Origin: Escherichia coli
Lineage (GTDB): Bacteria > Pseudomonadota > Gammaproteobacteria > Enterobacterales > Enterobacteriaceae
Assembly: GCF_041886205.1 (NCBI RefSeq)
Contig: NZ_CP169029.1
Reading direction: 5' to 3' (one strand)
DNA length: 64,000 bases
The position numbers were made by a program, and so were the translations under genes. Below, one piece after another: positions 35,197-39,999 of this stretch. Under the pieces are notes generated by a model, which was given only the letters and a program-made list of their open reading frames with translations, had not been told where the DNA came from and did not search any database. How positions within the stretch are numbered: the stretch's first letter is position 1; each line of letters opens with the position of its first letter.

Positions 35197-36351
35197 TTAC
35201 TTCAGACCGGCAGCATCGCGCAGCAGCTGCGCTTTGTCGGTTTTTTCCCACGGGAAATGTTCACGACCAAAGTGACCGTATGCTGCGGTTTCTTTGTAGA
35301 TCGGGTGCAGCAGATCCAGCATCTGAATCAGACCGTATGGGCGCAGGTCGAAGAACTCACGTACCAGCAGAGTCAGTTGTTCAGAAGGCACTTTCTCAGT
35401 ACCGAAAGTTTCTACCATGATGGAGGTCGGTTCAGCCACGCCGATTGCGTAGGAAACCTGAATTTCACAACGATCGGCCAGGCCAGCAGCAACGATGTTT
35501 TTCGCGACATAACGTGCTGCGTAGGCTGCGGAACGGTCCACTTTTGATGGATCTTTACCAGAGAATGCTCCGCCACCGTGACGTGCCATGCCGCCGTAGG
35601 TATCAACGATAATTTTACGACCAGTCAGACCGCAGTCACCCATCGGGCCACCGATAACAAAACGACCGGTCGGGTTGATGAAGAATTTGGTGGCAGAAGT
35701 CAGCCATTCAGCGGGCAGAATCGGCTTGATGATCTCTTCCATTACCGCTTCTTGCAACGATTTCTGGTCGATCTCTTCAGAGTGCTGAGTGGAAAGCACG
35801 ACAGCATCGATACCAACGATTTTGCCGTCGTCATACTGAAAAGTCACCTGGCTTTTCGCGTCCGGGCGCAGCCACGGCAGAGTGCCGTTTTTACGCACTT
35901 CAGCCTGACGCTGTACCAGACGGTGTGCATAGGTGATAGGTGCTGGCATCAGCACGTCGGTTTCATTAGTTGCGTAGCCAAACATCAGACCCTGGTCACC
36001 CGCGCCCTGTTCCAGCGGATCGGCACGGTCAACGCCCTGGTTGATGTCAGGAGACTGTTTGCCGATAGCGCTCAGAACCGCACAGGAGTTAGCGTCAAAG
36101 CCCATGTCGGAATGCACATAGCCAATTTCGCGAACGGTGTTACGGGTGATCTCTTCGATGTCTACCCAGGCGCTGGTGGTGATTTCGCCGCCAACTAAAA
36201 CCATGCCGGTTTTTACGTAGGTTTCGCAAGCAACGCGTGCTTTCGGATCCTGTTCGAGGATCGCGTCTAAAACGGCATCAGAAATTTGGTCAGCAATTTT
36301 GTCAGGATGCCCTTCAGAGACGGACTCGGACGTAAAAAGGTGTTTTGCCAT
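35197..36351 (-). CDS. metK: S-adenosylmethionine synthetase
   Basis: [43 protein letters not shown]..., 384 aa. Confidence 0.96.
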
Positions 36352-36654
36352 ATTTAATATCACCTAAAGAGAATTTGGTTAGCTCAAACTGTTGTGTGGA
36401 TTTTCTGTGGTAGCGGATCCTACCACGACTCTGCAGGTTAAAAACACTGGCAGTCTGAGTGTTAATCGGTATGGATGGATTAACATCTGGATGGCTATTT
36501 TAGGTCAATTCTTCACCCTATTTCCACTTTTTTTTGAATCGTGTCTCATTCTGTTAAAAACGTGGCTGGAAATTTTTCCTGACAATGCCGGCATTCTGCG
36601 TATTTATCTTTTGCAATTTTCTGCCATTGTGGGGTATAAAACGCGGCGCGCGGC

Positions 36655-36870
36655 TTAAATAAAAAGCACACGACGTTTCTTTCGTGTTGCCACTTCCAGC
36701 CGGGTTGAAATCAGAGTTTTGGCTTGTGGGTTCGTCTTAACAGGCGGCCGTGGAGGTGATACGAAATAATGAACCGTTGTCTGCTGCTTAACCTGTCTCA
36801 CCGTTCTGGTGAAGATTCGTTCCCCGCACTCTGCATCTCTGCTTTGCATACCTGCCGATGTTATACCCAT
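36655..36870 (-). CDS. yqgC: Small protein YqgC (71 aa), annotated in K-12 between metK and speA
   Basis: 71-aa ORF at the position and orientation expected for yqgC by synteny; sequence identity recalled only weakly. Confidence 0.4.
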
Positions 36871-37005
36871 CTCGGCGCTTCTCAGGATTCAAGAGCTGGT
36901 TACAGTTACTGAGGACTGAACAAGGGCGCTCTTGTAAAAACAAGAGTTTTCTCGTGGTTTCGCCGAACTGTCACACTTACGTTCGGTTATGTGCTTAATA
37001 ATGTT

Positions 37006-37137
37006 ATGAAAAAGAAACCGGTTGCGCAGTTGGAGCGTCAGCATTCACTGCTGGAAAATCCATGTGCTTATGGGTTGTTATCGCAGTTCCAGGCTGCGAT
37101 AGTCGTTAACTGTTTTACACTTAATAAAATAATTTGA
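37006..37137 (+). CDS. yqgB: Small protein YqgB (43 aa), immediately upstream of speA
   Basis: Hand-translated [43 protein letters not shown], matching K-12 YqgB. Below the ORF-track size cutoff. Confidence 0.6.
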
Positions 37138-37145
37138 GGTTCGCT

Positions 37146-39122
37146 ATGTCTGACGACATGTCTATGGGTTTGCCTTCGTCAGCGGGCGAACACGGTGTAC
37201 TACGCTCCATGCAGGAGGTTGCAATGAGCTCCCAGGAAGCCAGCAAGATGCTGCGTACTTACAATATTGCCTGGTGGGGCAATAACTACTATGACGTTAA
37301 CGAGCTGGGCCACATCAGCGTGTGCCCGGACCCGGACGTCCCGGAAGCTCGCGTCGATCTCGCGCAGTTAGTGAAAACTCGTGAAGCACAGGGTCAGCGT
37401 CTGCCTGCACTGTTCTGTTTCCCACAGATCCTGCAGCACCGTTTGCGTTCCATTAACGCCGCGTTCAAACGTGCGAGGGAATCCTACGGCTATAACGGCG
37501 ATTACTTCCTTGTTTATCCGATCAAAGTTAACCAGCACCGCCGCGTGATTGAGTCCCTGATTCATTCGGGCGAACCGCTGGGTCTGGAAGCCGGTTCCAA
37601 AGCCGAGTTGATGGCAGTACTGGCACATGCTGGCATGACCCGTAGCGTCATCGTCTGCAACGGTTATAAAGACCGCGAATATATCCGCCTGGCATTAATT
37701 GGCGAGAAGATGGGGCACAAGGTCTATCTGGTCATTGAGAAGATGTCAGAAATCGCCATTGTGCTGGATGAAGCAGAACGTCTGAATGTCGTTCCTCGTC
37801 TGGGCGTGCGTGCACGTCTGGCTTCGCAGGGCTCGGGTAAATGGCAGTCCTCCGGCGGGGAAAAATCGAAGTTCGGCCTGGCTGCGACTCAGGTACTGCA
37901 ACTGGTTGAAACCCTGCGTGAAGCCGGGCGTCTCGACAGCCTGCAACTACTGCACTTCCACCTCGGTTCGCAGATGGCGAATATTCGCGATATCGCCACG
38001 GGCGTTCGTGAATCTGCGCGTTTCTATGTGGAACTGCACAAGCTGGGCGTCAATATTCAGTGCTTCGACGTCGGCGGCGGTCTGGGCGTGGACTATGAAG
38101 GCACCCGTTCGCAGTCCGACTGCTCCGTAAACTATGGCCTCAATGAATACGCCAACAACATCATCTGGGCGATTGGCGATGCGTGTGAAGAAAATGGTCT
38201 GCCGCATCCGACGGTAATCACCGAATCGGGCCGTGCGGTGACTGCGCACCATACCGTGCTGGTGTCGAATATCATCGGCGTGGAACGTAACGAATATACG
38301 GTGCCGACCGCGCCCGCAGAAGATGCGCCGCGCGCGCTGCAAAGCATGTGGGAAACCTGGCAGGAAATGCACGAACCGGGAACTCGCCGTTCTCTGCGTG
38401 AATGGTTACACGACAGCCAGATGGATCTGCACGACATTCATATCGGCTACTCTTCCGGCACCTTTAGCCTGCAAGAACGTGCATGGGCAGAACAACTCTA
38501 TCTGAGCATGTGCCATGAAGTGCAAAAGCAGCTGGATCCGCAAAACCGTGCGCATCGTCCGATAATCGACGAACTGCAGGAACGTATGGCGGACAAAATG
38601 TACGTCAATTTCTCGCTGTTCCAGTCAATGCCGGATGCATGGGGGATCGACCAGTTGTTCCCGGTTCTGCCGCTGGAAGGGCTGGATCAAGTGCCGGAAC
38701 GTCGCGCAGTGCTGCTGGATATTACCTGTGACTCTGACGGTGCTATCGACCACTATATTGATGGTGATGGTATTGCCACGACAATGCCAATGCCGGAGTA
38801 CGATCCAGAGAATCCGCCGATGCTCGGTTTCTTTATGGTCGGCGCATATCAGGAGATCCTTGGCAATATGCACAACCTGTTCGGTGATACCGAAGCGGTT
38901 GACGTGTTCGTGTTCCCTGACGGTAGCGTAGAAGTAGAACTGTCTGACGAAGGCGATACCGTGGCGGACATGCTGCAATATGTACAGCTCGATCCGAAAA
39001 CGCTGTTAACCCAGTTCCGCGATCAAGTGAAGAAAACCGATCTTGATGCTGAACTGCAACAACAGTTCCTTGAAGAGTTCGAGGCAGGTTTGTACGGTTA
39101 TACCTATCTTGAAGATGAATAA
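37146..39122 (+). CDS. speA: Biosynthetic arginine decarboxylase
   Basis: [56 protein letters not shown]..., 658 aa. Confidence 0.96.
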
Positions 39123-39267: not shown

Positions 39268-39999
39268 ATGAAAAAATGGAAAGTACGTAGCGCGTTGGTG
39301 GCATTAATCGTGCTGCTGGCCGGTTGTTCCAGTAATGCGCAGTATAATAGCAGTGCATCGGGCAATGTCGGCACTGCCTGGGGTGGGGATGTGCACTCAA
39401 CGGTTCAGGGCGTATCTGCTGAGCGAGCCTGGCGCGATCCGGCAGAGATGATCGTTATTAGTTATTCGACTAATGTTCCTTCCGGCTACGACCGCGTTTA
39501 TAGCATTCGTATTAACGAACTGGAATATGCTATTCGCGATGGTAATTTTAATTCTCTACCTATTACGCGGATTTATGATTCATCCAATAATGAACCACGC
39601 TATATTGTCCATGCCAGAGTCGGAATGAATTATCAATTATATGTCCGTAATTACAGTCGTAACACCAACTACGAGATCGTTGCTACGGTTGATGGCATGG
39701 ATGTGCTGAACGGCAAGCAAGGTTCGCTGAATAACAACGGCTATATTGTGAATGCCGGAGATTCGTTAGCGATTAAAGGATTCCGCAAAGATAAACATAC
39801 CGAAGCGGCTTTTCAGTTCGCCAACGTTGCTGATTCCTACGCAGCCAATTCGGCGCAAGGCGATGTGCGTAATACCGGTGTAATCGGCTTTGCCGCCTTT
39901 GAATTACAAGGCCCGGCGCAAAACGCGCTGCCGCCGTGCTCTGGACAAGCCTTTCCGGCAGATAACAATGGCTATGCGCCGCCACCGTGTCGGAAATAG
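39268..39999 (+). CDS. Hypothetical lipoprotein (243 aa), accessory gene inserted between speA and speB
   Basis: Signal peptide with lipobox MKKWKVRSALVALIVLLAGC|SS; RBS GAGGGAACGGTTATG. As I recall, K-12 has no gene between speA and speB. Confidence 0.65.
   Translation: MKKWKVRSALVALIVLLAGCSSNAQYNSSASGNVGTAWGGDVHSTVQGVSAERAWRDPAEMIVISYSTNVPSGYDRVYSIRINELEYAIRDGNFNSLPITRIYDSSNNEPRYIVHARVGMNYQLYVRNYSRNTNYEIVATVDGMDVLNGKQGSLNNNGYIVNAGDSLAIKGFRKDKHTEAAFQFANVADSYAANSAQGDVRNTGVIGFAAFELQGPAQNALPPCSGQAFPADNNGYAPPPCRK

Follow-up and report, generated by a model that had tools for sequence, protein, structure and literature searches.

The small open reading frame yqgB evolves like a translated spacer within the predicted structured leader of Escherichia coli speA

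We analyzed a 64,000-nucleotide stretch of Escherichia coli DNA (the window; contig NZ_CP169029.1, positions counted from its first letter), in which the small open reading frame (ORF) yqgB lies directly upstream of speA, the gene for biosynthetic arginine decarboxylase. On balance, the evidence leans toward yqgB being a cis-acting translated leader ORF, in which selection keeps translation running up to the speA ribosome-binding site. What counts is the interpretation of yqgB: catalogues present it as an acid-stress or 'virulence' protein, and it has recently been proposed as a drug target, yet it evolves like a translated spacer.

The ORF, read from the letters, comprises 43 codons followed by a TGA, from an ATG at 37006-37008 to the stop at 37135-37137 on the plus strand, as had been called, with an identical translation, in an earlier sequence-only reading of this DNA. 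That reading had placed its end 9 nt before the speA ATG (37146-37148); the intervening bases number eight, the A of the ATG being the ninth. speA itself (37146..39122, +) encodes 658 aa. RefSeq annotates the ORF (37006..37137, +), the second small ORF of the speA leader, as the coding sequence of 'acid stress response protein YqgB', and the product belongs to NCBIfam equivalog NF033844 (90.1 bits, cutoff 35) and Pfam PF11036 (113.3 bits, cutoff 24), all in agreement with the name it had been given; homologues in databases are labelled likewise or as 'virulence promoting factor'. The ORF is the known gene yqgB (b2939 in E. coli K-12) and not a discovery, and its role as a possible upstream ORF (uORF) of speA is already in the literature. 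A megablast search with 36364-37300 matched 5425 of the 5426 complete E. coli genomes, almost all at ≥99% identity, and RefSeq carries the yqgB annotation in 5425/5426. The remark that the ORF is found only by hand was right for the ORF track then in use, but does not hold generally, given this annotation.

A same-frame ORF called mechanically begins upstream at GTG 36991 and has 48 aa; annotation places the start at ATG 37006, and this codon does not vary between genera. This start (37006..37008, +) has no Shine-Dalgarno (SD) sequence and lies in AU-rich surroundings, TTAATAATGTTATGAAAAAGAAA. At the other end, the TGA overlaps the speA SD, GAGG at 37136-37139 (37135..37139 together, +), which is spaced 6 nt from the speA ATG. 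Since 7 kb of the sequence contains 110 ORFs of ≥20 aa, a 43-codon ORF in a single genome is unremarkable by chance, and we accept yqgB as real because of the comparative evidence and published expression data.

For the comparison, loci were retrieved by the N-terminus of SpeA, a choice that would also bring in those with a broken or missing upstream ORF; this gave 80 loci from Enterobacteriaceae and Erwiniaceae. Species-locus counts refer to the 59 Enterobacteriaceae loci with enough upstream sequence, and statistics on selection and stops to 52 non-redundant sequences, with speA from the same 52 genomes as control. The conservation check across Enterobacteriaceae that had been proposed for the ORF came out in its favor: the ATG is invariant and the frame open in 59/59 species loci, with a peptide starting M[K/N]xKP, and disruption in relatives was found in 0/59, a few isolate-level entries suggesting rare damaged alleles. 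In all 59 speA-anchored loci the ORF is located immediately 5' of speA, the position of the YqgB family, and no premature stop was found in any of them. Frame 0 contains no stop in 52/52 sequences, while frames +1 and +2 contain means of 3.6 and 2.5. Column-wise shuffling of bases predicted 12.0 ± 3.0 stops, and none of 1000 shuffles had fewer than 4, against an observed 0. A count that is conservative with respect to kinship gave the same picture: in the 18 variable columns there are 228 distinct codon types; 5.4 stop types were expected among these and 0 seen (P about 0.004).

Only two yqgB ends occur in the 59 species loci, the TGA in the speA SD (n = 34, gap +8) and a second TGA overlapping speA (n = 25, gap −8). 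The latter lies inside ATGTCTGA, over speA codons 2-3 in another frame (37151..37153, +, in the window). Use of the second TGA follows small insertions or deletions (indels) near the yqgB 3' end, sister taxa alternate between the two stops, and the third frame, which would fuse yqgB to SpeA, is not used in any of the 59. yqgB thus shows the geometry of a coupled uORF, with a stop close to or overlapping the downstream start or SD, as the E. coli TGA overlaps GAGG. Both TGAs are fixed by speA's own TGAGGTTCGC-ATG-TCTGA, almost invariant across 79 aligned loci, and because they lie in the speA SD and in codons 2-3, two of the three frames would end at speA in any case. What is informative is the open frame upstream, not where the stop falls.

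The length of yqgB is 43 codons in 32 loci, 48 in 19, 44, 47 and 49 in one each, and 55-91 in the five with insertions. Three independent insertions (~20-130 nt) account for the lengthening to 55-91 codons; all stay open, the chance of which is 0.13-0.43 for each, and end at the same TGAs. Indels within yqgB are likewise in frame (locus L048; protein entry P0007, a 6-codon deletion). In Erwinia and Pantoea the ATG is lost, but an in-frame GTG five codons upstream is kept, with a frame of ~50 codons closed by the TGA that overlaps speA. In the Pantoea agglomerans group there is an unrelated ORF, 28-31 codons from its ATG (35 from an upstream GTG/TTG), with the same end point.

These observations bear on the possibility that conservation reflects nothing more than a structured RNA, or a binding site for a protein or small RNA, with yqgB as a passenger whose translation has no role. 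Constraint at the nucleotide level, the predicted helices described below, a low in vivo ribosome signal and a start lacking an SD would all fit such an element. An untranslated element would, however, have no need of an invariant ATG, nor would it explain the lack of stops among the 228 codon types of neutral columns, the in-frame indels or the insertions that stay open. Tagging, as cited by Adams et al., and INRI-seq moreover indicate that the start is used, and we regard an RNA-only element as distinctly unlikely.

We compared constraint on the peptide with constraint on the nucleotides. The ratio of nonsynonymous to synonymous change (pN/pS) is 1.007 for yqgB, versus 0.056 for speA codons 1-250, and no better in its own frame than in the shifted frames (0.91 and 0.66). 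Entropy at codon positions 1/2/3 is 0.637/0.703/0.610 for yqgB, versus 0.095/0.057/0.873 for speA codons 1-250. The hallmarks of a functional small protein, pN/pS well below 1 and an excess of third-position variation, are thus not seen in yqgB. Its 18 variable codons are neutral (pS 0.43, pN 0.51, ratio 1.19). In the 24 conserved codons pS is 0.127, four times lower than at speA synonymous sites (0.499), and individual four-fold degenerate or rare codons are nearly or fully fixed: GGG23, CCG5, GCG31 and TTA25 in 51/52 sequences each, and ATA32 and TTG24 in 52/52. ATA, GGG, TTA and TTG are rare codons in E. coli. All wobble-frozen codons sit in predicted helix arms. These patterns suggest that the yqgB peptide is not selected and that conservation acts mainly at the nucleotide level.

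The predicted helices were obtained with RNAalifold on 37 genera, with pairs counted across the aligned sequences. Three form a domain inside yqgB (37016..37076, +): P1 pairs AACC at 37016-19 with GGTT at 37073-76 and is invariant, P2 pairs 37026-29 with 37064-67 and includes 3 pairs with compensatory changes, and P3 pairs CAGCA at 37039-43 with TGCTG at 37049-53 (94% paired). Hairpin P4 (TTATCGCAG / CTGCGATAG; codons 25-33; 37078..37102, +) has a conserved basal stem of 7 bp and a variable 11-nt apex. A fifth, weak and speculative helix, P5 (37105..37144, +; 6 pairs), would join 37105-11 to GGTTCGC at 37138-44 of the speA ribosome-binding site; the same stretch holds the invariant block GTxAACTGTTTTACAC.

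Across sequences the helices are paired at 95.6%, versus 22-53% when the partners are slid, and cells with changes on both sides number 14, versus 7.2 ± 2.1 in shuffles, which amounts to modest covariation. P4 can be folded in each of the 35 distinct versions (−5.7 to −16.5 kcal/mol), and its basal seven pairs keep G·U pairing in 10 of 11 one-sided changes. The apex exceeds shuffled sequence in stability in 12/35 versions, and in Salmonella, Citrobacter and Klebsiella it includes the tetraloop C(UUCG)G. Because the G·U pairs are kept, P4 is better read as plus-strand RNA than as a DNA palindrome, and an operator palindrome is less likely. No P5 pair changed on both sides, so covariation is uninformative there. 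The probability of the speA SD being unpaired is 0.43 with the leader and 0.59 without it; in view of this small shift, anti-SD masking by P5 was set aside and retained as a possibility only. The single-sequence fold of E. coli gave an uninformative z-score of −1.08, and a scan of 36300-37300 on both strands against Rfam 15 (E ≤ 1) matched no family. Counted from the yqgB start, the upstream arm of P1 occupies +11 to +14, which by estimate falls inside the footprint of the initiating ribosome.

Based on these features, a cis-acting leader ORF could work as follows. Ribosomes would initiate at the SD-less yqgB ATG, traverse a stretch that may also fold into the conserved helices, and terminate at the UGA within the speA SD in E. 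coli, or over speA codons 2-3 in many other genera. They could then be delivered to the speA start by termination-reinitiation coupling. Ribosomes translating yqgB would, in addition, occupy the final 140 nt of the leader, limiting Rho termination in the leader and early speA. Folding of P1-P4 probably sets the frequency of yqgB translation and is a plausible regulatory input, P1-P4 being a candidate gate of initiation because of the position of P1, from +11 relative to the yqgB start. For most of the YqgB peptide, the residues themselves would be immaterial.

Published data on expression fit parts of this scheme. Adams et al. 2021 (PMC7815308) list yqgB-speA among validated, uncharacterised uORFs with a 3' end <200 nt downstream, report a likely yqgG-yqgB-speAB transcript, and find that the Rho effect persists in a fusion with the 5' untranslated region (UTR) only. 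The same paper counts yqgB among experimentally validated small ORFs (tagging, Hemm 2008 as cited there). From its supplement, a Rho-dependent Term-seq 3' end (K-12 coordinate 3085854), carrying the authors' flag 'uORF', maps by sequence to ~37203 (+), 57 nt into speA. Ribosome evidence, which had been proposed as a check, is divided: INRI-seq found initiation at the yqgB start in vitro, and the same study notes that in vivo Ribo-RET did not detect it. In Salmonella, ΔyqgB lowers speA and speB mRNA, arginine decarboxylase and spermidine, and the colistin killing of this mutant is reduced by arginine, putrescine and spermidine. Polyamines also rescue the acid sensitivity published for ΔyqgB. 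These data agree with a cis-acting role for yqgB, the drop in speA/speB being consistent with it but not specific. Because the yqgB stop overlaps the speA SD, deleting the whole of yqgB could damage the speA ribosome-binding site directly; the text of the Salmonella study contains nothing on complementation or polarity, and its strain table lists neither a complemented strain nor deletion primers. The idea of a leader or co-translated ORF raised in the sequence-only reading is partly supported, by the conservation pattern, the uORF listing and the Salmonella deletion, although it is neither new nor proven. A mention of yqgB in a σ54 paper proved to be a nearest-gene label and was set aside.

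The annotation, and the 2026 colistin-adjuvant study, assume instead that YqgB is a small protein acting in trans to promote acid resistance and properties of the envelope. It carries a protein name in RefSeq, NCBIfam and Pfam, the product has been tagged (as cited by Adams et al.), and its deletion is acid-sensitive (Hobbs 2010, as cited by later papers). The 2026 study (Adv Sci) includes methods for surface plasmon resonance and figures of drug docking to YqgB, and pN/pS does fall below 1 in codon blocks 2-8 and 31-39. Against a trans-acting protein stand the overall pN/pS of 1.0, no better than in shifted frames, with 18/42 codons neutral, and the freezing of conserved residues at synonymous sites, including ATA, GGG, TTA and TTG, which points to constraint on the RNA. 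The C-terminus, moreover, switches freely between two endings. AlphaFold, given a 24-sequence alignment, returned no confident fold (predicted local distance difference test, pLDDT, 53; predicted template modeling score, pTM, 0.16), which is weak evidence for so small a protein. In a screen for arrest peptides, overexpressed YqgB elicited a heat-shock signature, typical of aggregation, and the deletion phenotypes are those expected from less SpeA, with no complemented strain in the study's list. Together, these points make a trans-acting YqgB unlikely in our assessment.

By analogy with MdtU and SpeFL, YqgB might alternatively be a ligand-sensing arrest peptide, whose polyamine- or arginine-induced stalling would govern both Rho access and speA expression. 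The setting is suggestive: the ORF belongs to the leader of an operon for polyamine biosynthesis, Rho-dependent termination occurs shortly after it, Adams et al. put it forward as a candidate on the model of mdtU, and the best-conserved block of the peptide, AIVVNCFTL, is close to the C-terminus. That block is, however, frozen at synonymous sites and overlaps helix arms, unlike conservation at the peptide level, and the distance from AIVVNCF to the stop ranges from 6 to 54 codons. The mark of an arrest motif, amino acids kept through synonymous change, is not seen in yqgB, and the overexpression signature was heat-shock and not the cold-shock signature of arrest peptides. The neighboring ORF yqgG, whose C-terminal SQDSRAG is kept through synonymous changes, looks much more like a sensor. 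Arrest on YqgB appears very unlikely from this comparison. Attenuation of the trpL type is not indicated either, since E. coli YqgB has a single Arg codon and no run, and a terminator scan found no intrinsic terminator between yqgB and speA.

Several points weigh against the cis-acting translated leader ORF. The speA gene has a good SD, modestly masked by the leader, and may initiate independently. yqgB translation may be too low for strong coupling, given the Ribo-RET miss. The position of the stop is in itself weak evidence. Most helix pairs never vary, which leaves covariation support thin. The pN/pS values of blocks 2-8 (0.52) and 31-39 (0.39) may reflect a weak constraint on the peptide. 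Finally, no experiment tying yqgB translation to speA output was found in the literature covered, which did not include Hobbs 2010 and Hemm 2008 themselves.

The remainder of the leader provides the context for yqgB. A σ70 promoter (36611..36648, +) with both hexamers conserved, TTGCAA at 36611-16 and TATAAA at 36635-40 with an 18-nt spacer, precedes it. The cloned speA 5' UTR begins at 36648, as primer GCGCGGCTTAAATAAAAAGC of Adams et al. 2021 maps to 36648-36667; this start gives a speA leader of 498 nt and agrees with the conserved promoter. Two candidate promoters nearer to speA were rejected in favor of this one. The conserved TACAAT just 5' of the yqgB ATG lacks an acceptable −35, and transcripts from it would begin downstream of that ATG. 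TTAACT-16-AATAAT, the only scan hit inside yqgB (37106-37133), depends on a −10 that other genera do not conserve, and its transcripts would lack the speA SD.

The first small ORF of the leader, yqgG (36769..36912, +; 47 aa), is annotated in RefSeq, matches Pfam PF23505 with 129.9 bits, and has a strong GGAGG, with GGAGGTGAT upstream. It is retained in 51/59 Enterobacteriaceae species loci. Its C-terminal motif with SQDSRAG survives synonymous change, Arg being encoded by AGG, AGA, CGG or CGA, Asp by GAT or GAC, and Ala by all four codons. The yqgG C-terminus thus bears, in the alignment, the signature expected of a regulatory nascent peptide, which yqgB does not bear, and yqgG may be the real sensor of the speA leader. 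It was validated by Weaver et al. 2019. A second Term-seq 3' end in the Adams et al. supplement (K-12 3086295) maps to ~36762 (+), just 5' of the yqgG start and ~115 nt into the leader.

Between yqgG and yqgB, 16 nt after the yqgG stop, lies a conserved, terminator-like hairpin followed by TTTTCT (36928..36947, +, with the tail extending to about 36957). It shows compensatory changes in 4/7 stem pairs across genera, RNAalifold also folds its T-run into a longer stem, and the available passages of the Adams et al. supplement contain no Term-seq 3' end there; it may not be a simple terminator. A smaller hairpin between it and yqgB was spotted by eye.

A wider proposal, which we hold tentatively, is that the YqgB peptide has no function of its own and that the speA leader is an undescribed regulator of several parts: a sensor-like yqgG, the covarying hairpin, an initiation-gating domain, and yqgB, which would carry ribosomes and exclude Rho. 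The acid, virulence and colistin phenotypes of ΔyqgB, and the drug-target claim, would then be consequences of reduced SpeA/SpeB.

The window is a piece of the E. coli chromosome, where the local order of genes is galP(−), metK(−), then, on the plus strand, yqgD, yqgG, yqgB, speA, an extra ORF and speB. The ORF of 'protein YqgD' (36407-36658, +) has no Pfam or NCBIfam match and overlaps the speA leader promoter and the divergent control region between metK and speA; its conservation may reflect regulatory DNA rather than protein. The extra ORF (39268-39999, +; 243 aa, hypothetical) begins MKKWKVRSALVALIVLLAGCSS..., is lipoprotein-like and without a Pfam match, and lies between speA and speB, which are ~1 kb apart. 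At least 80% of the speA-speB interval is present in 3550/5426 E. coli genomes, and 'speAB' is not a tight two-gene unit where this ORF is present.

Individual sequences showed further variation in yqgB. The insertions in some Enterobacter-like genomes (loci L021, L026, L037, L038 and L039) sit between AIVVNCF and the speA SD. Among variant protein entries, which are mostly singletons and may contain sequencing errors, P0005 (E. coli) and P0008 (Shigella flexneri) included, these two show apparent compensated frameshifts that scramble 6-8 residues and restore the frame and the 43 codons. P0002 is a yqgG-yqgB fusion, P0006 and P0010 are annotated from an internal TTG, and P0013 has a replaced 5' end; the last three suggest that the normal start or 5' end is lost in some isolates. 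In E. coli HT-948 (NZ_CP122317.1) the match to 36364-37300 ends at query base 785 (window 37148), the speA ATG, and does not extend over speA, which points to an insertion or rearrangement at precisely the junction of yqgB and speA.

The YqgB of Bacillus thuringiensis is, we presume, unrelated to the enterobacterial protein. Klebsiella oxytoca NBRC 105695 (L012) has a yqgB homologue upstream of speA. A polymerase chain reaction survey reported yqgB absent from 125 K. oxytoca isolates, its virulence-gene label resting on a citation for the B. thuringiensis YqgB, and the label 'virulence promoting factor' could have arisen from two genes sharing a name.

Repression of speA by putrescine has long been known. 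If yqgB is a cis-acting leader ORF, this repression gains a concrete cis-regulatory region, and it is to speA/speB and polyamine synthesis that the phenotypes credited to the YqgB protein should be assigned. As a general point, a small ORF immediately 5' of a gene needs a cis/trans control before it is labelled a small protein.

Compared with its database entry, the ORF analyzed here is the same gene (b2939; NF033844/PF11036), 43 aa long, in the same place 5' of speA and without sequence difference; databases read it as a functional protein, whereas the comparative pattern fits a cis-acting translated leader ORF. What this analysis adds is evidence that an annotated 'protein' behaves as a translated spacer within a structured leader. 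The speFL-speF system reportedly uses an ornithine-sensing arrest peptide, in a leader ORF where translation, RNA structure and Rho interplay. Like yqgB, speFL is a leader ORF 5' of a polyamine biosynthetic decarboxylase gene in Enterobacteriaceae, but SpeFL acts via a specific nascent peptide, whereas yqgB lacks peptide-level selection and its stop abuts the downstream start. The pairs trpB-trpA and trpE-trpD are translationally coupled, with overlapping or nearly overlapping stop and start. As in these pairs, only a few nucleotides separate the yqgB stop from the following start, and the stop overlaps the SD of that start; such an arrangement allows termination-reinitiation. Both partners of the trp pairs are functional proteins, whereas yqgB appears to be a spacer ORF with putative coupling. 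The mdtU-mdtJI leader (PMC7815308) resembles that of speA in having a small ORF in a polyamine-related leader with Rho-dependent premature termination just downstream. For MdtU, dependence on spermidine and translation was shown experimentally and the C-terminal peptide is conserved, in contrast to YqgB, a candidate whose peptide evolves neutrally (pN/pS 1.0). A further comparison lies within the leader itself, where yqgG and yqgB share a transcript, are similar in size and are conserved across the same genera, but only yqgG has a strong SD and selection on its C-terminal peptide.

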